Source of the DNA: an uncultured Candidatus Epulonipiscium sp.
Lineage (GTDB): Bacteria > Bacillota > Clostridia > Lachnospirales > Cellulosilyticaceae
Assembly: GCA_964442565.1 (NCBI GenBank)
Contig: CAYUEJ010000003.1
Coordinates: 1 to 24,077 of the forward strand
Direction of reading: 5' to 3'
Length of the DNA: 24,077 nucleotides
The notes under the pieces are model-generated. The model had not been told where the DNA came from, did no database searches, and was given only the letters and a program-made list of their open reading frames with translations. This document shows positions 3,407 through 22,511 of the stretch, one piece after another. How positions within the stretch are numbered: position 1 is the first letter of the stretch; every line of letters starts with the position of its first letter. A program made the position numbers and the translations under genes.

Positions 3407-3421
3407 GGCCTAATACAAAAT

Positions 3422-3483
3422 GAGGGGACGGTTCACAAAAAACACTAATTCTAAGATTAGTATTTTTTGTGAACCGTCCCCTC
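3422..3483. repeat. Long palindrome (GAGGGGACGGTTCAC...GTGAACCGTCCCCTC), REP-like; may also terminate hemZ transcription
   Basis: 28-bp arms with one mismatch and a 6-nt loop, between the hemZ stop and the gntR promoter. 16 bp of the right arm recur exactly at 6222-6237. Confidence 0.8.
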
Positions 3484-3556
3484 GTACTGCTGTCTCCTGT
3501 ATTACCTACTCAACACTCTTCTTAATTTGCAGCTTTTTCATAATGAATACCTATCA

Positions 3557-11794: not shown

Positions 11795-11875
11795 TGGGTA
11801 TAGAAAATGTGCCACCATCAACGCTTTTACAACCAGAGGTTGTATGCGTCGATGATGGCACATTTTCTATGCCTA
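11795..11875 (-). repeat. Long hairpin, family A (conserved-loop element)
   Basis: Core arms 11800-11824 and 11846-11870 (25 bp, 2 mismatches, extendable by 5 bp); the loop on the minus strand is ATACAACCTCTGGTTGTAAAA. Confidence 0.9.
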
Positions 11876-11892
11876 TTATATCTATACTGTGG

Positions 11893-11956
11893 TAGTAGCG
11901 TACTTTTCGGACACTTTTACAAGCAAAGTTGTGTGTGCAGGAAATCTATGCTACTA
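11893..11956 (-). repeat. Long hairpin, family A, degenerate stem, overlapping the secF stop codon
   Basis: Arms 11893-11914 and 11935-11956 (16/22 Watson-Crick); the loop on the minus strand is ACACAACTTTGCTTGTAAAA. Confidence 0.75.
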
Positions 11957-12838
11957 GGCTCTTTTAGTTTTTTGAGTCAATTGATACCATACCGGGCTTG
12001 CTATAAATATAGATGAATATGTTCCTATTCCAATCCCCACTGCTAATGGAATAGCAAATTCTTTAACTGAAGCTGTTCCAAAAATTATTAAAAATATTAC
12101 AACTGATACAGTAGTTATAGATGTATTAATTGTTCTAGTTAAGGTTTGAGCAATACTCATATTAATAATCTCTGCCTTATCTTTTCTTACTCTACCTCTG
12201 TTTTCACGAATACGGTCAAATATAACAATTGTATCGTTAATAGAATATCCTAAGATTGTAAGGGTTACTGCAATAAATGATGTGTTAACTGGTACTCTAA
12301 ATACTGAGTAAACCATTAAAACAATACATAAATCATGAAGGAGTGCTATAACAGCGCTTGCCCCCATATAAAAATCTTTAAATCTAATACTTATATATAT
12401 TAGCATTAATATTGCTGATACTATAATTGCTTGTATTGCCCTTGTTTTCATTTCACCACTCACTGTTGGTGACATATCTTCTACCCCTAGCTGGTCTTCA
12501 TCTGTTAGGTTATATTTTTCTTTAAGAGCTTCAAACAATTCTTTTCTTTGACCTGTTGTAGTCTCTTTAATCTTAATAACTACTTCATTTTCTCCTGCTA
12601 CCTTAGTAATATGTGGTGACTTGTCCCCTGTTGTTTCCTCAACAATTGGCTTAATATCATTTTGAATATCGAAGTCTTGTCCAATATTTACATGTACTAA
12701 AGTTCCACCTTTAAACTCTATGTCATAATTTAGTATATCATTTCCTAAAGCCGCATTAAAAGGCATGGCAAGGAGTCCTATTAAAACAAGCACTATTGAA
12801 ATAGTAAAAAATATTTTTCTTTTTCCTATGAAATCCAC
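11954..12838 (-). CDS. secF: Protein translocase subunit SecF
   Basis: DIEFKGGT, SPTVSGEM, ILGYSINDTIVIFDRIREN, RTINTSITT and GTYSSIFIASP motifs. Confidence 0.96.
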   Translation of the reverse strand: MDFIGKRKIFFTISIVLVLIGLLAMPFNAALGNDILNYDIEFKGGTLVHVNIGQDFDIQNDIKPIVEETTGDKSPHITKVAGENEVVIKIKETTTGQRKELFEALKEKYNLTDEDQLGVEDMSPTVSGEMKTRAIQAIIVSAILMLIYISIRFKDFYMGASAVIALLHDLCIVLMVYSVFRVPVNTSFIAVTLTILGYSINDTIVIFDRIRENRGRVRKDKAEIINMSIAQTLTRTINTSITTVSVVIFLIIFGTASVKEFAIPLAVGIGIGTYSSIFIASPVWYQLTQKTKRA

Positions 12839-12850
12839 TGCGTATCCCCC

Positions 12851-14113
12851 CTATTCTGCAACTTTGCGCGCACCGTATAGTGCTGGTTTATTTATGCCCA
12901 TATTAATGAATAATCTCATAATATATCTTGTAATAAAAATTGCTGTAAACATTGAAATTACGATACCTACTGCTAATGTTTGTGCAAAACTTTTAATAAG
13001 TCCTGAGCCTAGGTAGTATAATACAGCTGCTGATATGAGTGTTGTTACGTTACCATCAAGTACGGCGCTAAGAGCCTTGTTAAATCCAACATCCACGGCT
13101 ACCCTAACACTTCTACCAACCTCTAACTCTTCTTTAATACGTGCCATAATAATTACGTTAGCATCTACAGCCATACCTATAGATAATATAATACCTGCAA
13201 TACCTGGAAGTGTAAGCGTTGCTCCCATAGCACTTAACGCAATAATTAATAATCCAATATAAAAACAAAGTGCAATATCTGCTGCAATTCCGCCTACTCG
13301 GTACATAACTGCCATAAATACTAAGATAAATATAACACCTAGTAATCCTGCAAATATACTTGAATCTAGTGCGCTCATACCAAGTTTGGCACCAACTGCC
13401 ATGGTTGAAATAGGTGTTAGGTTAAATGGTAATGATCCAGCTTCAATCCTACCTGCTAGCACATCTGCCTGTTCACCGGTGAATCTTCCTTCAATCATTG
13501 CCTTGCCGTCTGTAATTACACTGTTAACGTTTGGCGCGCTAATAACAACATCATCAAGCATAATGGAAAGTGGCTGGTTAATATACTTCTCTGTCGCCTC
13601 TGCAAAAAGTTTTGTTCCTTCTCCATCAAACTCAAGTGATACAACAGTCTTTGTAAGCCCTGTTTGTTGGTCTTGGTAAATCTGCTTAGTTGCACTCTTA
13701 ACGTGCTGACCACCTAAAGCTACCTCGCCATCAGGCCCAACAAATGATAGCTGAGCTGTTGCACCTATTTCCTCTACTGCTTGTGTCGCATCCTTCACAC
13801 CTGGAATATCAACGCGAATCCTTCTAGTACCTTCTTGTGCTACATCAGATTCTGTATATCCCTCTCTATCTAATCGTACGCGAATCATTTCAATTGCTGA
13901 GCTCATTTCTTTTTGGGTAGGATCTTCCTTAACATCAGCTTCATATACGATGTTTACTCCGCCTTTTAGGTCAAGTCCTAGCTTAATTCCTTCTGCTCCA
14001 AACTTCTTGCTCTCCCCAATTCCGTAATATGCTAATGCGGCAATTCCTACTGCAAGAGCTATTACTATAGCAAATATTATGCTACTTTTGGTTTTCTTAT
14101 TAGTACCCTTCAT
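12851..14113 (-). CDS. secD: Protein translocase subunit SecD
   Basis: KLGLDLKGG, LTLPGIAGIILSIGMAVDANVII, DGNVTTLI and IKSFAQTL motifs. Confidence 0.96.
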   Translation of the reverse strand: MKGTNKKTKSSIIFAIVIALAVGIAALAYYGIGESKKFGAEGIKLGLDLKGGVNIVYEADVKEDPTQKEMSSAIEMIRVRLDREGYTESDVAQEGTRRIRVDIPGVKDATQAVEEIGATAQLSFVGPDGEVALGGQHVKSATKQIYQDQQTGLTKTVVSLEFDGEGTKLFAEATEKYINQPLSIMLDDVVISAPNVNSVITDGKAMIEGRFTGEQADVLAGRIEAGSLPFNLTPISTMAVGAKLGMSALDSSIFAGLLGVIFILVFMAVMYRVGGIAADIALCFYIGLLIIALSAMGATLTLPGIAGIILSIGMAVDANVIIMARIKEELEVGRSVRVAVDVGFNKALSAVLDGNVTTLISAAVLYYLGSGLIKSFAQTLAVGIVISMFTAIFITRYIMRLFINMGINKPALYGARKVAE

Positions 14114-14168
14114 GTTTTTCCTCCTTATTGAGTAATCTTTATGTTATAAATTAATTCACATAAGACCT

Positions 14169-14197
14169 ATTATAAAATGCAATCAACCATACGTCAA
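14169..14197 (-). promoter_or_regulatory. SigA-type promoter of secD-secF
   Basis: Minus strand TTGACG (14197-14192), 17 nt spacer, TATAAT (14174-14169). Confidence 0.75.
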
Positions 14198-14231
14198 TCC
14201 TTTAACAACTTTACCTATGTACTTATAACCA

Positions 14232-14263
14232 TAAATTAAAAGCAGTGACCCTCTAGTCACTGC
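14232..14263 (-). terminator. Intrinsic terminator downstream of the TIGR04086-like gene
   Basis: Minus strand GCAGTGAC-TAGAGG-GTCACTGC followed by TTTTAATTT. Confidence 0.8.
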
Positions 14264-14310
14264 AATACAGTTCATTATAACACACATCTTAATCTTTGCA
14301 AAGTGCGTTG

Positions 14311-14733
14311 CTATTTTTTCATATTAATGCCTAGCATGCCACCTACCGCTCCACTACAAAGCATTACGCATAGCATTACTAATGCGTTTGTGCATAGCAG
14401 TAAACTTGCCTCTGATGTAAATGCTGCAATGGCAAAATAAATAGCTGCGTATATGCTAGCACCAACTATCCCCCATTTCCATCCATCTTTGCGCTCGCCC
14501 TTAGATGTATCTGCTCCTGCAATAAATGTTGATAAAATAATGCCTGTAATAATAATAATTTTTTCCTTATCAACCCCTATATTTGTATGTGTAATCAAAA
14601 CTGCTGTTGTAAGTAAAAATATAATAGTAACCATATAAGCATACATATTTGCCTTTAAAATACGCGCTACCCTCGTCGTAACTGGATTTGTTTTCGCCCC
14701 TGTTTTAGATCCTTTAACATAGCTTTTTTGCAT
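14311..14733 (-). CDS. Four-TM membrane protein, TIGR04086/YrzE (DUF3792)-like
   Basis: 140 aa with four hydrophobic segments, the K..GWKWG motif and C-terminal GAVGGMLGIN; typical clostridial position upstream of secD. Confidence 0.75.
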   Translation of the reverse strand: MQKSYVKGSKTGAKTNPVTTRVARILKANMYAYMVTIIFLLTTAVLITHTNIGVDKEKIIIITGIILSTFIAGADTSKGERKDGWKWGIVGASIYAAIYFAIAAFTSEASLLLCTNALVMLCVMLCSGAVGGMLGINMKK

Positions 14734-14822
14734 GATTTCACTCCTCCCTATTAAATGGCTTATACTATTGTATGCATGAAATTGACACTTTATGATAATA
14801 TATATATAGGAGGCTGATAATT

Positions 14823-15635
14823 ATGATAGTAGATTTACATGTACACTCAAATGCATCAGATGGAACTTTGACACCGACCGAACTTGTAATCCATGCTAAG
14901 GAAAAAGGGCTTAGCGCTATAGCTTTAACAGACCATGATACAGTTGAAGGGATAGATGAGGCCATGGAGGCCGGCGCACTATACCAAGTTGAGGTTATAG
15001 CAGGTATAGAACTTTCCGCCGATTTTCCAAATGATAACCTACATATATTAGGCTATCGTATTAACTTTAAGGATTCAGAATTTCTAAAAAAACTAAGACC
15101 TATACAAAATGGTAGGAATATTCGCAATGAAAAAATGCTCCAAAACCTTCGTGATTTAGGTTTTGATATAAGTATTGATGGTGATGCAGATATTGTTACT
15201 AGAGCGCACTTTGCTAGGGCCCTATTCGATGCTGGATATGTATCTTCACTTGATCAGGCCTTTAAGCTTTATCTTTCTCCTGGCAAACCTGACTATGTTA
15301 AACGAATAACCCCTAGCCCTAAAGAATGTATTGATTTAATCCATAGCGGGGGGGGTATAGCTGTCTTAGCCCATCCAACCTTATACGGTTTAAAGGCGCC
15401 AGAAATTATGAGACTCGTAAAAAAACTAGCAGACAACGGCCTTGATGGGATTGAGGTTATGCACTCAGTCCATAGTAGGCAAGACGAAATATTCCTAAGG
15501 GACCTAGCCAAAAAGAATAACCTAATTATTACTGGTGGCAGTGATTTTCACGGAAGCAATAAACCTAATCTTGAGATTGCTATAGGATACGGCAACCTCA
15601 AAATCCCCTACTCCATCTTGGAAAGCCTTCTGTAA
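14823..15635 (+). CDS. PHP domain metal-dependent phosphoesterase (TrpH/YciV-like)
   Basis: DLHVHSNASDG, ALTDHDT, GIELS, HILGY, AVLAHP and TGGSDFHG motifs; RBS AGGAGG. Confidence 0.93.
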   Translation: MIVDLHVHSNASDGTLTPTELVIHAKEKGLSAIALTDHDTVEGIDEAMEAGALYQVEVIAGIELSADFPNDNLHILGYRINFKDSEFLKKLRPIQNGRNIRNEKMLQNLRDLGFDISIDGDADIVTRAHFARALFDAGYVSSLDQAFKLYLSPGKPDYVKRITPSPKECIDLIHSGGGIAVLAHPTLYGLKAPEIMRLVKKLADNGLDGIEVMHSVHSRQDEIFLRDLAKKNNLIITGGSDFHGSNKPNLEIAIGYGNLKIPYSILESLL

Positions 15636-15639
15636 ATAT

Positions 15640-15707
15640 GGTGGAGTGGTATGGTGCAACACACACAGCATACGCCGCAAAAGTGTTGCACCATACTACT
15701 TACCACC
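15640..15707 (+). repeat. Long hairpin, family A
   Basis: Arms GGTGG-AGTGGTATGGTGCAACAC and GTGTTGCACCATACTACT-TA-CCACC; loop 15663-15682 ACACAGCATACGCCGCAAAA; starts 4 nt after the PHP stop. Confidence 0.9.
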
Positions 15708-15732
15708 ACCCGATAATAGAAGTCTACCCACA

Positions 15733-15760
15733 TGCCCTCCCCACATTAGATGGCTGCACG
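15733..15760. repeat. 28-bp direct repeat B, copy 1
   Basis: TGCCCTCCCCACATTAGATGGCTGCACG, identical to 15849-15876; flanked by CTACCC...GGGTAG. Confidence 0.92.
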
Positions 15761-15819
15761 GGGTAGGGTCAGCAGGTTTTAAATTCGGGTGCTACATTTG
15801 TTACAAAAACACCCTCCCG

Positions 15820-15847
15820 AACACTTTTGCAACCTAAGTTGCCGTGT
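15820..15847 (-). repeat. Family A loop without its outer stem
   Basis: Minus strand ACACG-GCAAC-TTAG-GTTGC-AAAA-GTGTT; the left and right flanks do not pair. Confidence 0.75.
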
Positions 15848-15848
15848 C

Positions 15849-15876
15849 TGCCCTCCCCACATTAGATGGCTGCACG
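15849..15876. repeat. 28-bp direct repeat B, copy 2
   Basis: Exact copy of 15733-15760, 116 nt downstream. Confidence 0.92.
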
Positions 15877-15945
15877 TGGTAAAGGCACCATATGGAACAC
15901 TTTTGCGGCGTATGCCGTGTGTGTTACATATGGTGCCTTTATCAC
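15876..15945 (-). repeat. Long hairpin, family A
   Basis: Core arms 15880-15900 and 15921-15941 (21 bp, 1 mismatch); the minus-strand loop ACACGGCATACGCCGCAAAA is 19/20 identical to the loop at 15663-15682 in inverted orientation. Confidence 0.92.
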
Positions 15946-15957
15946 TAATAGCCAATT

Positions 15958-17349
15958 TTAAAAATCTGCTGACCCAGGTGTTCTTGGGAATGGAATAACG
16001 TCTCTAATGTTTGTCATTCCCGTTACGTACATAATTAGCCTTTCAAATCCAAGACCAAATCCTGCGTGGCGTGTACCACCAAATCTTCTAAGGTCAAGAT
16101 ACCACTCATATCCTTCTGTAGTGAGACCCATTTCAGCCATACGCGCCTCTAATACATCAAGCCTTTCTTCCCTTTGGCTACCACCAATTAGCTCACCAAT
16201 CCCTGGTACCAAGAGATCCATAGCTGCTACAGTCTTATTATCCTCGTTAATTCTCATATAAAAAGCTTTAATATCTTTTGGATAATCTGTTACAAACACT
16301 GGCTTTTTAAAATGTTCTTCTGTTAAATAACGCTCGTGCTCTGTTTGAAGGTCGCAGCCCCAATATACATCGTACTCAAACTTCTTATCTGCTGCCTTAA
16401 GGATTTCAATACTATCTGTATAACTAACCCTTACAAAGTCTGATTCTAATAAAATATTAAGTCTGTTCATAACATCCTTATCCACAAACTTATTAAAGAA
16501 TTCCATCTCCTCTGGAGCATTGTCTAAAATATATTGCACAATATACTTTACCATATCCTCTGCAAGGTTCATATTATCATTAAGGTCTGCAAAGGCAATC
16601 TCTGGCTCTAACATCCAAAACTCAGCCGCATGACGTGGTGTATGGGAATTCTCAGCCCTAAAGGTTGGCCCAAAAGTATAAACATCTCTAAAAGCCATTG
16701 CAAATGTTTCTGCATTTAACTGACCACTAACTGTTAAGTTGGACATCTTACCAAAGAAGTCTTCTTTATAATTAACATTGCCCGCCTCATCCTTAGGAGG
16801 ATTTGCTGGATCTATAGTTGTTACATGGAACATCTCACCCGCACCCTCAGCATCGCTTGCTGTAATAATTGGTGTATGTGCATATACAAAACCTCTCTCC
16901 TGGAAAAACTGGTGTATAGCATAAGATGCAAGTGATCTTATACGAAATACAGCTGCAAAGGTATTTGTCCTAGGGCGAAGATGGGCTATTTGTCTAAGAT
17001 ATTCAAATGTATGCCTCTTTTTTTGAAGTGGGTACTCTGCTGGCGAGTTACCTTCTACCTCAATGTTAGTAGCTTTAATTTCAAAAGGCTGCTTGGCATT
17101 TGGCGTTATAACAATGCTACCCGTTGCAATAATTGCAGACCCTACTCCTAACTTTGCAATTTCCTTAAAATTGTTAAGTTCCTGATCAAATACAATCTGC
17201 ATACTCTTAAAGAATGTTCCATCATTTAGTTCTATAAAACCAAATGTCTTGGAATCTCTAACAGTACGAACCCAACCTGCCACTGTTACTGTCTGTCCTT
17301 CAAATGCTTGTATATCCCTATACAGCATTTTTACTGATGTAGTCCTCAT
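15958..17349 (-). CDS. asnS: Asparagine--tRNA ligase
   Basis: [80 protein letters not shown] and GFGLGFERL motifs. Start placed at ATG 17349 after GGGAG (ORF track 17373). Confidence 0.97.
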
Positions 17350-17422
17350 TCTATTCTCTCCCTTTAATTTCAATTATTGCTTATCCTTTTATATTAATCT
17401 AATTTTGCTCATTTTACAAGGC

Positions 17423-17447
17423 AAAAAACTCCCTTTAACAGGAGTTT
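17423..17447 (-). terminator. Intrinsic terminator overlapping the stop of the TPR-like gene
   Basis: Minus strand AAACTCC-TGTTAAAG-GGAGTTT-TTT. Confidence 0.65.
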
Positions 17448-17757
17448 AGTTTACGGTTTTTAAAACTGTAGTAAAATTCTCATACATTTGTTTAAATTTC
17501 TCAAGTTGAGTATGTTTATGCTGGCAATCACTCTGCTCTACCCCTTCAAAAACCGTTAGTGCTTTTTCTAAAATTCGCATTAAATCCTCTTTTTGACCTA
17601 AATTTAAATAATACTCACTTAAACGCTCATACGGGTGGGTACCATCGAAACTTTCTTCTACATTTAACTCATATAACTCTACAGCTTTATCAATATCCCC
17701 ACTTTTTTCATATTCAATAGCTTGAAGATTTCTTTCAACTTGGTCTGACCAGCTCAT
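17446..17757 (-). CDS. Small hypothetical protein, TPR-like helical repeat
   Basis: EYEKSGDIDKAVELYE...HPYERLSEYY...EDLMRILEKAL resembles a TPR helix pair. RBS AAGGAG fits ATG 17757 better than 17763. Confidence 0.6.
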   Translation of the reverse strand: MSWSDQVERNLQAIEYEKSGDIDKAVELYELNVEESFDGTHPYERLSEYYLNLGQKEDLMRILEKALTVFEGVEQSDCQHKHTQLEKFKQMYENFTTVLKTVN

Positions 17758-17856
17758 GTACATCCGCTCCTTTGCTTAGTAGTTGCATTATTTAAATATT
17801 TAGTTAATTGATATTATAGTATCAAACAAATACTAAATAGTCAACACTAAAAAAGG

Positions 17857-18639
17857 TTATTTTACCATTCTTTGTCTAACCACTTCAAACATGCATATTC
17901 CTGCTGCAATTGATGCATTTAACGATTCCGCCCCTCCAGGCATTGGAATTTTAATAAAGCTTGGAACCATATTACGGGTTACCTCACTTATTCCATTAGC
18001 CTCATTACCAATCACTATAGCGGTCTTTTGTGTATAATCATAGTCATATAATATTTTACTTTCTTCTAAAGAGGTTGCATATATATTGGTTTTTGCATCT
18101 GTTAGGCTATTAATAATATACTCCATATCCATATCAATAATTACAGGTATATGAAATATAGACCCCATGGTAGCCCTTACTGTTTTAGGGTTATATAGGT
18201 CTACGCACCCCCTAGATAAAAATATTCCATCTGCATTACTTGCATGGGCTGTTCTTATTAATGTCCCAAGGTTACCTGGGTCATTAATAAGATCTGCTAC
18301 AATAAAAAAACCCTTATCTTTTTGAATAATATCTTCTAATTTATAATCTAGCTGGGAAACCACTGCTAATATTCCCTGTGGCGTTTTTGTATCTGAAATA
18401 GCCTCAAATACACTATCTGATACTTCTATAAAAGGGGCATTCTTATTTATAATAATTTTATCAATTTGTGAAATAAGGCTCTTAGCTACAACATATTTAT
18501 GTATATTCCAGTTAGTTGGTATTTCCCTAACAGCCCTAAGACCCTCAACAATAAATACTTGTTGGTTATTTCTCTCTTTTTTCTTCTTTTGAAGAAGTTG
18601 TAGTTCTTTTATAAGTGGATTTTGGTTACTTGTAATCAT
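17857..18639 (-). CDS. TrmH/SpoU family RNA methyltransferase
   Basis: MITSNQNPLIK, FIVEG, TPQGILAV, DPGNLGTLIRTA, RATMGS, IGNEANG and AESLNASIAAGI (SPOUT) motifs. Confidence 0.95.
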   Translation of the reverse strand: MITSNQNPLIKELQLLQKKKKERNNQQVFIVEGLRAVREIPTNWNIHKYVVAKSLISQIDKIIINKNAPFIEVSDSVFEAISDTKTPQGILAVVSQLDYKLEDIIQKDKGFFIVADLINDPGNLGTLIRTAHASNADGIFLSRGCVDLYNPKTVRATMGSIFHIPVIIDMDMEYIINSLTDAKTNIYATSLEESKILYDYDYTQKTAIVIGNEANGISEVTRNMVPSFIKIPMPGGAESLNASIAAGICMFEVVRQRMVK

Positions 18640-18670
18640 TATGACACACCTTTACTATAATTATACTTGT

Positions 18671-19321
18671 TTAACTAAATTGCTCTATTTTCTTATTAGC
18701 CCCAACTACAACCAAGATATCATTTTTTAGTAATAAAAAATCTGGACCTGGCGTGATTGAAATTTCCTTATCTCTTTCTATAGCAATTACATTAATACCA
18801 TATGCGGCCCTCATATTAATTTCCCTGATTGTTTTACCATTCCACGCTGGTAAAGAAACAATCTCCACTATGCTATACTCTGGTGATAGCTGAATATGCT
18901 CTACAATACTTCCTGATATTAAACTATTTGCAATTCTCACCCCCATATCCTGCTCAGGTGAGATAATCTTATCTGCCCCTAGTTTTTGTAATACTTTCTC
19001 ATGAAGATCACTACTTGCTTTTGCAACTACATATTGTATTCCCATCTCTTTAAGCAATAGTGTAACCATTATACTTGACTGAATATCACGCCCTATAGCA
19101 ACTATAGCTATATCAAAATTTCTTATACCTAATGAATTTAAGGTATCAACATCTGTAACATCTGCCTGGACTGCATGGGTTACAACTGATGATATCTCCT
19201 GAATAACTTCCTCATTGATATCTATGGCCATAACTTCATAACCTGATTCTGCCAGCGTTGTTGCAACACTAACCCCAAAACGGCCTAAGCCTATTACTAC
19301 GAATTGCTTATTTTTTAGCAT
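18671..19321 (-). CDS. ktrA: Ktr/Trk potassium uptake NAD-binding subunit (KtrA/TrkA family)
   Basis: VIGLGRFG Rossmann motif, RCK_N plus RCK_C domains, PEQDMG. Confidence 0.92.
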   Translation of the reverse strand: MLKNKQFVVIGLGRFGVSVATTLAESGYEVMAIDINEEVIQEISSVVTHAVQADVTDVDTLNSLGIRNFDIAIVAIGRDIQSSIMVTLLLKEMGIQYVVAKASSDLHEKVLQKLGADKIISPEQDMGVRIANSLISGSIVEHIQLSPEYSIVEIVSLPAWNGKTIREINMRAAYGINVIAIERDKEISITPGPDFLLLKNDILVVVGANKKIEQFS

Positions 19322-19334
19322 AATTATTCTCCTT

Positions 19335-20708
19335 TTATACTATTATTTTTTCCTCTGGATACTGAATTGCATTTTTACTATTTCCTTGTTTAACCATTAT
19401 GGCCACAACCATAGTAACCGGGCCAAGCCTTCCTATAAACATATCTATTATTATTATTCCTTTTCCTATAACTGATAAATTCGGTGTAATACCTAGTGTT
19501 GATCCTACTGTAGCAAATCCCGATACTGCCTCAAATAAAAGGTCAATAAACTGTGCATCCTCTGTAAATGAGAGAATAATTGTAATTCCCAAGACTACTG
19601 CAAGTGCAATCATAATTACTGCTAAGGCCCTTAAAATTGCCTTTAAAGGTATTTTCCTTTGGAATGCCTCTATGGATTCCTTTCCTTTGACAGTAGATAT
19701 GGTACATAAGACTAGAATCCCGGCTGCAATAGTTTTAATCCCACCTGCAGTTCCTGCCGGCGACCCACCTATAAACATTAAAATTATCATCATAAATTTA
19801 GATGAATCTTTCATTGCATTTAAGTCAATCGTATTAAAACCTGCGGTTCTTGGCGATACCGACTGAAAAAAGGCAGCGAATATCTTATCAGCAAGCGGAA
19901 GTCCTCCTAGTGTGCCAGGATTGTTAAACTCTGCTATTAAAAAGAATAAAAAACCGCCTACAATTAAATATAAGGTAATTGTAAGGACTAATTTCGTATG
20001 GAGTGCTAGCTTATCAAATGCTTGTTTCCATGTAAATCTTTTGTTCATCTTCATCTTTGACTTCACACCATGTATTATATCCATCCATACACCAAACCCT
20101 AAACCACCCAAAATTATAAGCCCTGATATGGTAAAGTTTATAATAGGACTGCCTACATAAGGTGATAGGCTAGAATCTCCAACAATATCAAATCCTGCAT
20201 TACAAAATCCTGATATAGAGTGAAAAACAGAATACCAAGCCCCTTTTAAAAAACCGTATTCTGGTATAAATTTAAGCGATAATAAAAGTGCCCCAATCCC
20301 CTCTACCAATAAGGTTCCTTTTACAATTGTTTTAGTAAACTTAACAACCCCTGCAGTTGTATCTCTACCTAAAGCCTCCTGCATAATTAATCTATCTTTT
20401 AAAGTGATTTTTTTACCTAATAGTACAAAAAGCATACTAACCAAAGTCATAAATCCAAGCCCACCTATTTGGATAAGCGATATAATGACTATTTTACCAA
20501 ACAAGCTCCAATGGGCATAGGTGTTGACCACAATAAGCCCCGTTACACATACTGCTGATGTTGCGGTAAATAAGGCATCTAAATATGATATACTTTGATT
20601 ATTATTACTTGCTATTGGCAATGATAATAGGAGGGAGCCTATTATTATCACTATTAGAAAGCCTATTACTAATATTCTTGCTGGCCCTAAACTTACTTTT
20701 TGTTTCAT
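19335..20708 (-). CDS. ktrB: Ktr/Trk potassium uptake membrane subunit (KtrB/TrkH family)
   Basis: ALFTATSAVCVTGL, IQIGGLGFMT, FHSISGFCNAGF, RTAGFNT, GSPAGTAGGIK and MFIGRLGP motifs. Confidence 0.93.
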   Translation of the reverse strand: MKQKVSLGPARILVIGFLIVIIIGSLLLSLPIASNNNQSISYLDALFTATSAVCVTGLIVVNTYAHWSLFGKIVIISLIQIGGLGFMTLVSMLFVLLGKKITLKDRLIMQEALGRDTTAGVVKFTKTIVKGTLLVEGIGALLLSLKFIPEYGFLKGAWYSVFHSISGFCNAGFDIVGDSSLSPYVGSPIINFTISGLIILGGLGFGVWMDIIHGVKSKMKMNKRFTWKQAFDKLALHTKLVLTITLYLIVGGFLFFLIAEFNNPGTLGGLPLADKIFAAFFQSVSPRTAGFNTIDLNAMKDSSKFMMIILMFIGGSPAGTAGGIKTIAAGILVLCTISTVKGKESIEAFQRKIPLKAILRALAVIMIALAVVLGITIILSFTEDAQFIDLLFEAVSGFATVGSTLGITPNLSVIGKGIIIIDMFIGRLGPVTMVVAIMVKQGNSKNAIQYPEEKIIV

Positions 20709-20898
20709 TTTTGTTACCCCTCTTTTATACTATCCTTACTATAAATGTGTTATAACATATTATACCCTTTTTTATGATTATAGCATATTAAGTTTTTATT
20801 ATCTAAACTGTATTTGAGGCAATATTGTCGGTTTTTGCTATACCTAGTTTTCTTTTTTAGGTTTTTACTGTATAATAGGTAAATATGGAGGTGTTTGT

Positions 20899-22083
20899 GT
20901 GGAAGTTCAAAATAATATTGTAATAGTCGGTGGTTGTATCGCTGCAAAAGAAGCAGCTAATGCTATTCTGAAAAATGATTTGCTAGCAAATATTACTATT
21001 ATAAGCTCGGAAGCTTATTTGCCTTATTACAGACCTATGCTTTCACGTGCTATAGGCCAAGAACCTGATAAATCAAGATTTTATTTAGCTCCTAGGTCAT
21101 GGTACGAAGAAAATAATATAAATCTGGTCTTAGGCACAGAGATATCTAAGGTTATACCAGAAGATAATATAGTTGTTTCAACCAATGGAGATTCTTATAG
21201 CTATACCCAGCTACTTATAGCAACAGGTTCAAGTAATTTTATACCTATACCTAATGCAACAGATATAGATGGTGTTATATCTATTCGTGATTATAATGAT
21301 ATAACTAAGCTACGCAACATATTGCCTCGTGTAAAGAAAGCCATAGTTGTAGGTAGCGGGCTTTTAGGAATAGAAGCAGCCTGGGAACTACAACAGCAAA
21401 ATATCGATGTAACATTAATGGAGTTTGCACCACATGTACTTCCTAAACAACTAGATAACCAGGCATCTGATTTCTTATCTAAGCATATTAATGGGCTAGG
21501 TACGGATATAACTTGTGGCTGCGCCGCTCAAAGTATATTAGAAGAAGATGGTTCTATTATTGGCGTTAAATGCTCCGATGGTGCAGATTATCCTTGTGAT
21601 TTACTTATATTTTCAGTTGGTGCACTTCCTAACATAGCCTTAGTTAAGGATACCAATATTTTAACTAATAGAGGAATTATTGTTGATAATAATATGAGAA
21701 CTAATATCCCAAATATTTACGCAGCTGGCGACGTTGCCGAGAATGAATACAACTCTTCTGGCTTATGGCTTCCTGCTATGGAAATGGGCAAGGTTGCCGG
21801 TGCTAATATAGCAAATCAAGAGGCATCCTATAAACCAGTATTTACAACAACAATGTTAACCGCTTTTGATACTAGAATCTTTTCCATAGGTGAAATCCCT
21901 ACTGGAGATGATATTAAAACAGAGGCTATTATAGACCCTGACAATAGATTTTTTAAAAAGTTATTTGCTAGGGATAATATATTAATAGGTGCTATCCTTA
22001 TAGGTGATATTTCACAAGGGACACGCCTTACTAAAAGTCTTGGTACAAAAACCTTAGAGGAAGCCAAAGAACTTATTGCATAA
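20899..22083 (+). CDS. FAD-dependent NAD(P)H oxidoreductase, probable NAD(P)H:rubredoxin oxidoreductase
   Basis: PYYRPMLS, LLIATGS, VGSGLLGIEAA, RGIIVD...TNIPNIYAAGDVAE; directly upstream of rubredoxin; GTG start after GGAGG. Confidence 0.85.
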   Translation: MEVQNNIVIVGGCIAAKEAANAILKNDLLANITIISSEAYLPYYRPMLSRAIGQEPDKSRFYLAPRSWYEENNINLVLGTEISKVIPEDNIVVSTNGDSYSYTQLLIATGSSNFIPIPNATDIDGVISIRDYNDITKLRNILPRVKKAIVVGSGLLGIEAAWELQQQNIDVTLMEFAPHVLPKQLDNQASDFLSKHINGLGTDITCGCAAQSILEEDGSIIGVKCSDGADYPCDLLIFSVGALPNIALVKDTNILTNRGIIVDNNMRTNIPNIYAAGDVAENEYNSSGLWLPAMEMGKVAGANIANQEASYKPVFTTTMLTAFDTRIFSIGEIPTGDDIKTEAIIDPDNRFFKKLFARDNILIGAILIGDISQGTRLTKSLGTKTLEEAKELIA

Positions 22084-22156
22084 AAACTATATTTCAGTTT
22101 ATAATATGTCTTAAGACAGATTATAATATAAATCAAAACAAAAGGAGAGATAAATT

Positions 22157-22315
22157 ATGGAAAATTGGGTATGCTTAGTATGTGGATATGTATATGTTCC
22201 TGCAGATGGTGATCCAGATAACGGCGTTGAGCCAGGTACATCATTTGAGAATGTTCCTGAAGAATGGGTTTGTCCACTTTGCGGAGTAGGCAAAGATCAA
22301 TTCGAACAAGAATAA
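22157..22315 (+). CDS. Rubredoxin
   Basis: Below the ORF-track size cut-off. Hand translation: [52 protein letters not shown] (52 aa, two CxxC motifs); RBS AAAGGAG. Confidence 0.96.
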
Positions 22316-22322
22316 TAAAGTA

Positions 22323-22385
22323 GCAGATAGGTCCTTTTTGAGGCAGACAACTCACGTTGAAAAGCCCCAAAAAGGACCTATTTGC
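22323..22385 (+). repeat. Long hairpin, family A
   Basis: 22-bp arms GCAGATAGGTCCTTTTTGAGGC and GCCCCAAAAAGGACCTATTTGC (2 mismatches); loop AGACAACTCACGTTGAAAA. Confidence 0.88.
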
Positions 22386-22435
22386 CATAACTATTGTTCG
22401 TCAGGAAAGCAGATTTTTTTACCAGAGATAAATAT

Positions 22436-22511
22436 AATGGGAGGATAGGTTATAAAGCAATACTTTTGCACCGTTAAGGCGTGTGTATTGCGTATAACCC
22501 ATCCTCCCATT
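22436..22511 (-). repeat. Long hairpin, family A
   Basis: Arms 22436-22463 and 22485-22511 (about 27 bp); the loop on the minus strand is ACACGCCTTAACGGTGCAAAA; begins a few nt after the pyk stop. Confidence 0.9.

Follow-up and report, generated by a model that had tools for sequence, protein, structure and literature searches.

A genus-restricted hairpin repeat, conserved at its tip, at gene 3' ends of a Candidatus Epulonipiscium genome

Introduction

The 24,077-nt stretch of DNA analysed here (the window) belongs to an uncultured Candidatus Epulonipiscium sp., whose gene content suggests a Clostridia-type Firmicute and which is present in wastewater and bioreactor metagenomes of several studies, and carries at its convergent gene junctions a set of long hairpins that are alike at the tip. 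Judged by analogy, these hairpins appear closest in habit to the REP, BIME and REPIN elements, to small orphan palindromic repeats and to bidirectional terminators. Repetitive extragenic palindromic (REP) elements and their BIME and REPIN arrangements, which go with a REP-associated tyrosine transposase (RAYT, or TnpA-REP) and are exemplified by Escherichia coli REP and Pseudomonas REPIN, conserve the stem and a 5' GTAG tetranucleotide within a unit of 20-40 nt. Ordinary intrinsic terminators have no common sequence and close with loops of 3-8 nt; repeated terminator-like hairpins of Mycobacterium have reportedly been found with the RNIE terminator predictor.

Other described elements bear on different aspects of the hairpins. 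Correia and RUP repeats end in conserved inverted repeats and are bounded by target duplications. Two further elements, integron attC sites and the plasmid single-strand origin ssoA, act as signals in folded single-stranded DNA: recognition depends on the structure together with a few unpaired or apical bases, and most of the stem sequence is free. In attC, the base of the hairpin is conserved (R and L boxes; R''/R', RYYYAAC/GTTRRRY) and the sites form cassette arrays beside an integrase; ssoA resides on rolling-circle plasmids in one orientation.

Results

A family of long hairpins with a common tip

An initial annotation, made from the letters of the window, had described the hairpins and suggested that a covariance model be run over the genome and that Rfam be searched. 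Trained on 65 aligned family copies, such a model detects ~135-140 copies in the 2.07-Mb genome that carries the window (G000; 420 contigs, 35.9% G+C, 75% complete, the window being its contig C3). Several copies are cut by contig ends, and the number of matches ranges from 98 to 140 depending on the strictness of the search filter. A descriptor scan of the genome was bimodal, with ~75 apex strings accompanied by a flanking stem of 17-27 bp versus ~2,350 strings lacking a stem, and the exact apex pattern matched 51 times whereas the reversed control pattern did not match at all. Among the 273 long hairpins of G000, 147 have an apex of at least 17 nt. Long hairpins are equally dense in G000 and in G001, one of three sister species of the same genus considered here (G001, G002 and G003), with 13.2 and 12.8 per 100 kb, respectively, whereas the share with a large apex is 54% in the former and 16% in the latter.

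The element is uncatalogued. No part of the window matched Rfam at gathering thresholds, the E-value mode returned only sub-threshold models of eukaryotic microRNA hairpins, and no Rfam family holds the element; nothing relevant was retrieved from the literature searched by description and by motif strings. As described below, it also departs from REP-RAYT systems, both in what flanks the transposase genes and in its stem and 5' tetranucleotide.

Two rarer apex classes, set on the same kind of stem, are included in the set with an apex of at least 17 nt. Class 2 (TGG-CAAC-N4-GTTG-CAAG) has ~12 copies, for example at G000 C4:2394-2462, C5:16355-16427 and C170:416-500, and class 3 (TGC-GGCC-N4-GGCC-GAAG) has ~4, including G000 C19:2589-2669 and C81:2188-2275. 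Both are laid out alike, with a purine-rich internal loop of 3 nt against 4-5 nt, a mini-helix of 4-5 bp and a tetraloop. At G000 C81:2156-2330, a class-3 hairpin is nested in the loop of a GGGACGGTTAAC palindrome, which amounts to the insertion of one hairpin at the tip of a second one. At G003 L129:1590-1640, G000 C170:~470-560 and G000 C11:5300-5340, full copies are adjoined by tandem half copies, in which the apex and the 3' arm are present and the 5' arm is missing.

Variable stems of fixed length and a constrained apex core

The unit measures ~70-80 nt and comprises a short A-rich 5' flank, a 25-bp stem and an asymmetric apex of 19-22 nt, which reads NNN, CAAC, N4, GTTG, an optional C or T, and AAAA. 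We refer to the strand reading ACA..AAAA as the AAAA reading and to its complement as the TTTT reading. Two subfamilies, A (~27 copies, arms starting GTGGCAGATAAG) and B (~11 copies, arms starting GTGTCTGGCATA), have in common the A-rich 5' flank and a 3' ACTATC tail, and subfamily C is a diverse group with TTCAACAC adjoining the apex. Across the subfamilies there is only a weak common stem consensus, with an information content of 0.1-0.9 bit at most stem positions and a flank that is merely A-rich; the stem length is fixed at 25 bp. Within the window the arms had seemed to share almost no sequence. This impression does not extend to the genome, where the A-type and B-type copies have common 25-nt arms and are recovered by plain BLAST, although simple sequence-repeat finders had been expected to miss them. 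The stems are related by descent, in subfamilies.

Counted from the apex, the arms are paired in 84-100% of copies up to position 23, in 76% at position 24, in 61% at position 25 and in 21% at position 26. In the 65-copy alignment, 88.8% of the cells are paired, as compared with 62.9% in shuffles and ~38% with a slid partner, and two-sided changes occur at all 29 pairs (25 in the stem and 4 apical), in agreement with the structure-constrained stem and covarying apical stem first described. Beyond the 25-bp arms, the two flanks show no mutual complementarity, and no outer palindrome was found.

Nucleotide diversity within subfamily A is highest in the flanks (0.53-0.63), followed by the tetraloop (0.43) and the 5' triplet (0.37); it amounts to 0.17-0.18 in the arms and to 0.02 in each of the CAAC, GTTG and AAAA words. 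Because the three words are ~9-fold less diverse than the arms while the tetraloop and the 5' triplet drift freely, the constrained determinant is confined to a core of 12 nt (the mini-helix plus the 3' A-run) and does not extend to the whole loop, and the mutation rate of the tip is not low. The proposal that the loop is the recognised determinant and the stem sequence is free therefore stands for CAAC, GTTG and AAAA and falls for the 5' ANA triplet.

Placement at gene 3' ends and terminator features

We placed 75 copies relative to the surrounding genes: 33 lie in convergent spacers, 26 in co-oriented spacers and 1 in a divergent spacer, with 11 at contig edges and 4 overlapping called open reading frames (ORFs). 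Copies are enriched in convergent spacers, which hold 12% of intergenic bases (p = 3e-15), and under-represented in divergent ones (p = 2e-4); pairs and triplets of copies occur at single junctions. The preference for convergent junctions seen in the window is thus genuine without being exclusive, and the reported absence from co-oriented spacers is a peculiarity of the window, as they hold 26 of the 60 placed copies genome-wide. In the AAAA reading, a stop codon overlaps the 5' foot or lies no more than 8 nt away from it in 36 of 50 cases; for the 3' foot, this holds in 6 of 55. The element is specific to gene 3' ends generally and not to convergent junctions as such, a placement that bears out the REP-like habit initially attributed to it.

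Apex polarity follows the nearest gene, as had been noticed in the window, in 30 of the 33 convergent cases. In co-oriented spacers, 12 of 15 A and B copies are in the TTTT sense and 9 of 11 C copies are in the opposite sense (Fisher p = 0.004), giving an overall ratio of 12:14. This dependence of polarity on subfamily explains why polarity follows the nearest gene, and the opposite orientation of the subfamilies argues against one strand-specific RNA signal, which disfavours the trans-encoded RNase or RNA-binding protein put forward as a possible reader.

A T-tract, defined as at least 5 T within the 7 nt after the hairpin (background 10%), follows the TTTT reading in 39 of 71 copies (55%) and the AAAA reading in 15 of 71. 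It is present in at least one orientation in 49 of 71 copies and on neither side in the other 22; for the TTTT form of A and B copies, the count is 33 of 47. The statement that the hairpins are not ordinary terminators accordingly applies to the six copies of the window, none of which has a T-tract, and not to the family, in which more than half of the copies carry one in one orientation. GC skew in the G000 assembly tracks gene strand (r = 0.94).

At a few A-type copies (G000 C388, C149 and C61), the neighbouring ORF seems to enter the arm and to stop at the TAA in GATAAG, and the repeat may supply the stop codon of its neighbour in these cases. Adjoining another copy, G000 C67:1430-2015 encodes a 195-aa ORF that resembles by eye a type III toxin of the ToxN/AbiQ type.

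Distribution and turnover among sister species

The model matches 14 sites in G003, 15 in G002 and 1 in G001; it has no match in 43 genomes of 13 other genera of the bacterial family, and none outside the genus in a sample of 151 genomes from 111 genera of the order. A search with the exact apex pattern gave one match in one sister species and none in 39 further relatives. GTDB-wide pattern scans gave 0 matches and 1 chance match, with no true copies, the 7 matches of a JGI metagenome pattern scan all lack the 25-bp arms, and the phage and plasmid collections yielded no match. An unrelated word, GTTGCAAAAGTGTACCGA, recurs ~50 nt apart on JGI metagenome contigs L062, L064 and L067 and was picked up by chance in the pattern scan. 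The tip varies in the sisters: it reads ATA-CAAC-N4-GTTG-T-AAAA in G003, where it is set on B-type arms, and AAGCA-CAAGC-N3-4-GCTTG-T-AAAA in G002. Since the subfamilies have arms and flanks in common while the outer flanks are not complementary, the element multiplies as a whole hairpin, and it has expanded ~ten-fold in this species.

Three junctions (on contigs C60, C20 and C170) contain a copy in G000 and no hairpin in G002 or G001, and at 4-5 junctions with a G000 copy, G001 or G002 has an unrelated plain hairpin instead. The converse is observed on C56, where a G002 copy, located right behind a stop codon and upstream of a conserved plain terminator, corresponds to an empty site in G000. 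Five of seven sister copies lie at junctions that are also occupied in G000, but by another subfamily and sometimes with the opposite apex orientation. At several junctions, the element therefore occupies the place of the ordinary long-stem hairpin of a sister, or adds a hairpin where the sister has none. Sister sites hold plain hairpins or nothing, shared junctions differ in subfamily, and the large-apex share differs at equal hairpin density; taken together, the family looks like a hairpin that is spreading into the positions of terminators and undergoes turnover in place.

Between G000 and G001, the plain hairpins with long stems show good conservation and a few compensated pair changes. 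In one orthologous plain terminator hairpin (G000 C20:610-654 and G001 L043), we observed three compensated pair changes and a loop that reads GATTA in one species and TAATC in the other, its exact reverse complement; the loop has thus flipped inside the palindrome.

Copies within the window

The six hairpins and the stemless loop first described in the window are all present (Table 1). Five of the hairpins are far more stable than their dinucleotide shuffles (z from -11.5 to -7.3, a level reached by 0 of 200 shuffles), the sixth, H2, is decayed, and the loop is an apex that has lost its arms. In agreement with the first description, the ORF map shows convergent genes meeting at exactly three points of the window, namely S1-domain gene/secF, PHP-domain gene/asnS and rubredoxin/pyruvate kinase. 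All three are occupied, and every one of the six covariance-model matches in the window falls inside them.

Table 1. Positions of the hairpins and associated features; coordinates refer to the window unless a contig is given, z values to dinucleotide shuffles and bit scores to the covariance model.
Feature	Position	Strand	Scores	Apex and context
H1, full hairpin	11795-11875	-	z -11.5; 65.3 bits	11825-11845, ATA-CAACC-TCT-GGTTG-T-AAAA (- strand); starts 6 nt past the stop codon of the S1-domain gene
H2, decayed copy with mismatched stem	11885-11964 (initially 11893-11956)	-	z -1.9; 36.4 bits, E 5e-5	overlaps the secF stop codon
H3, full hairpin	15640-15707	+	z -7.3; 57.1 bits	15663-15682, ACA-CAGC-ATAC-GCCG-C-AAAA; starts 5 nt past the stop codon of the PHP-domain gene
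Apex-only remnant	15820-15847	-		CAAC-TTAG-GTTG type without 25-bp arms; core matches the apices of other copies, no arm pairing
H5, full hairpin	15876-15945	-	z -7.5; 70 bits	15901-15920, ACA-CGGC-ATAC-GCCG-C-AAAA
H6, A-subfamily copy	22323-22385	+	z -9.1; 73 bits	22345-22363, AGA-CAAC-TCAC-GTTG-AAAA; starts 8 nt past the last base (22315) of the rubredoxin ORF
H7, full hairpin	22436-22511	-	z -7.4; 61.7 bits	22464-22484, ACA-CGCC-TTAAC-GGTG-C-AAAA (- strand); ends 7 nt before the pyruvate kinase stop codon
Rubredoxin ORF	22157-22315			bounds the third convergent junction
Second-palindrome copies	3420-3485; G000 C176:1-63, C176:1231-1291; C110, C222, C43			

H5 is an inverted duplicate of H3: the two have a rare apex in common, and the substitutions and indels that separate their arms are compensated on both arms. 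These matched changes hint that one arm may have been corrected against the other, for which template switching, known for quasi-palindromes, provides an analogy. The same PHP/asnS junction contains a 28-nt direct repeat (15733-15760 and 15849-15876) that occurs nowhere else in the genome. The idea that this "repeat B" is a genome-wide BIME module was rejected, the mosaic being a local duplication. At the strain level, one public contig spans H1-H2 unchanged and one 28-kb ENA contig retains the 203-nt spacer between rubredoxin and pyk; a look-up of the S1-domain protein found no record.

A second palindrome accompanies the Y1 transposase genes

The family could be the cognate REP of a genomic Y1 transposase (IS200-like, RAYT-like) that binds the folded single-stranded apex and cuts and rejoins nearby. 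G000 indeed contains three Y1_Tnp (PF01797) genes, encoding proteins of 299 aa and 297 aa and one fragment, which score weakly against the RAYT model (55 and 46 bits for a cut-off of 80) and stand singly beside housekeeping genes. Genomes of the genus have 2-6 Y1 paralogs in at least three groups, and the extragenic, clustered and inverted habit of the hairpins is REP-like. No sequence in the PDB matched the Y1 protein at an E-value of 0.01 or better.

Most of the Y1 genes examined, however, are flanked by a second palindrome, GGGACGGTT(A/C)AC...GT(T/G)AACCGTCCC, in which the outer stem is conserved and the inner one varies with covariation, and none of them by the tip-conserved family. The second palindrome lies beside Y1_Tnp genes at G000 C176, C110 and C222 and on both sides of the gene at G003:C43; it has 7-14 copies in each of the four genus genomes and none in 43 other genomes of the bacterial family. 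One Y1 paralog group differs: the hairpins next to its genes are plain, or there is none of note. The look-out for a Y1 or RAYT gene flanked by the hairpins of the window, which the initial annotation had advised, thus led to a different repeat. In addition, (i) Y1 gene numbers (3, 6, 3 and 2 in G000, G003, G001 and G002) are out of step with the number of copies (~140, 14, 1 and 15), (ii) of 47 genomes of the bacterial family, 31 have Y1 homologs, and most of these 31 are devoid of the tip-conserved repeat, and (iii) the family has no conserved 5' GTAG-like tetranucleotide. A classical REPtron-like system exists in this Firmicute genus, but the flanking sequences assign it to the second palindrome and not to the tip-conserved family, and we consider it unlikely that the latter is the cognate REP of a Y1 enzyme.

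Discussion

Our data suggest that the hairpins are probably a genus-restricted, gene-less and selfish palindromic DNA element, similar to REP elements or miniature inverted-repeat transposable elements (MITEs), which would double as a terminator. Such an element would serve as a hairpin terminator or 3'-end hairpin, often in both directions. Its apex core (CAAC, GTTG and AAAA) would be read on the folded strand by the copying machinery, so that only copies keeping the core would found new copies, and the stem would need only to pair. The arms may remain complementary through selection for folding or through repair of one arm templated by the other, as the compensated substitutions and indels suggest. 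Retention at gene ends could reflect the ability of the element to stand in for a terminator there.

Several observations weigh against this explanation. The five of seven shared junctions would be explained by old shared insertions with turnover at the site at least as well as by frequent new transposition. No target-site duplication was seen at filled versus empty sites, which were compared by eye without a systematic scan, and within-species insertion polymorphism could not be demonstrated, as public Logan contigs end at the hairpins. Neither a mobilising enzyme nor an autonomous, gene-carrying version was found, in an incomplete genome and with no search of insertion sequence families other than Y1; between paired copies there is no recurrent ORF, only housekeeping genes. 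A consensus terminator scan calls none of the six T-tract-free window copies. Finally, the gene calls used to type spacers come from a crude ORF caller, and the assembly is fragmented and three-quarters complete.

A more radical form of mobility, which we regard as doubtful, would be an undescribed process in which an enzyme recognises only the small tip motif on a folded single strand and copies the hairpin without any end-sequence requirement, one arm being resynthesised from the other and the product landing near stop codons. It would explain the perfect pairing despite substitutions and indels, the fixed 25-bp arms and a selfish hairpin that steadily replaces terminators.

The hairpins could instead be a functional RNA motif of 3' untranslated regions, in which an RNA-binding protein or RNase reads the apex in the transcript for 3'-end formation or mRNA stability, and which is kept by selection and not by mobility. 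The placement right behind stop codons, the high stability of the RNA hairpins in both senses and the sequence-specific constraint on the unpaired AAAA and the 4-bp mini-helix, with a free tetraloop, are all compatible with such a role. In the same vein, G-U-compatible mismatches slightly outnumber A-C ones when A and B copies are taken in the TTTT sense (38 vs 22, p = 0.05), but this bias is weak and absent in C, and the strand signal in mismatch types is weak overall (34 G-T vs 56 A-C). The subfamilies differ in apex polarity relative to transcription, the motif is absent from other genera, its copy number spreads ~100-fold among sisters with the same housekeeping genes, and homologous genes in the sisters use plain hairpins. 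We view an RNA motif of this kind as improbable.

Insertion of a mobile 20-nt apex alone into the loops of older terminator hairpins, which would yield unrelated stems with one common loop and could draw on the equal hairpin density of G000 and G001 despite their different large-apex shares, on the nesting observed at C81 (an inner hairpin whose apex belongs to a related class, in a palindrome with a plain loop in its G002 ortholog) and on the rare apex carried by H3 and H5 on different arms, is very improbable and was rejected: the arms are fixed at 25 bp with a sharp boundary, while plain hairpins score 14 to ~30 pairs, full arms and flanks are common within subfamilies, the plain hairpin stems of the sisters are unrelated to the G000 stems in all 4-5 cases, and no outer palindrome extends beyond the arms.

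Considered as a mobile palindrome, the family resembles REP, BIME and REPIN elements in being gene-less, extragenic and lineage-specific, in having tens to hundreds of copies that form inverted pairs or clusters behind genes and between convergent genes, and in folding as an imperfect hairpin with an internal mismatch region. Unlike REP elements, it has a ~70-nt unit in which the 12-nt apex core is conserved and the 25-bp stem is variable, it does not bear the GTAG-type tetranucleotide, and the RAYT-like genes of the genome are flanked by the second, classical-looking palindrome in its stead. With bidirectional intrinsic terminators it has in common a long hairpin that directly follows stop codons or separates convergent genes, a T-tract that flanks one side in 55% of copies, with an A-rich tract on the other, and a position held in sister species by plain terminator hairpins; it differs from them by its 19-22-nt fixed-core apex and fixed-length stem recurring ~135-140 times, and by the 22 of 71 copies that are devoid of a T-tract.

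The Rickettsia RPE, the Neisseria Correia and the pneumococcal RUP and BOX repeats are likewise gene-less hairpins that come and go among close relatives. However, the present family has no sequence similarity to them and no in-frame insertions inside genes were seen, nor were the conserved terminal inverted repeats and target duplications of Correia and RUP, duplications being judged by eye only. The constraint on structure and on a few apical bases, with most of the stem sequence free, is reminiscent of attC and ssoA. In contrast to attC, the AAC and GTT words, as judged by eye, occupy the apex instead of the base, with 4 nt between them, and the copies are dispersed and not arrayed; in contrast to both, the element is chromosomal and scattered at gene ends, and no such partner was seen, though no intI search was made.

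More than half of all long hairpins in G000 belong to one small repeat, and its copies lie at many contig ends of the assembly, yet sequence-based repeat finders and Rfam-based annotation give the family no label. It is a natural example of a repeat conserved at its tip and not at its ends or in its stem, the reverse of REP elements. The constrained bases of the tip (CAAC, GTTG and AAAA), set against the free ones (the tetraloop, the 5' triplet and the 25 stem pairs), constitute a list for binding and cleavage assays. The replacement of terminator hairpins by a spreading element between sister species bears on the origin and turnover of terminators. If an enzyme that reads the tip exists, it would represent a new, tool-like activity; if there is none, the family would be one more selfish repeat private to its lineage.

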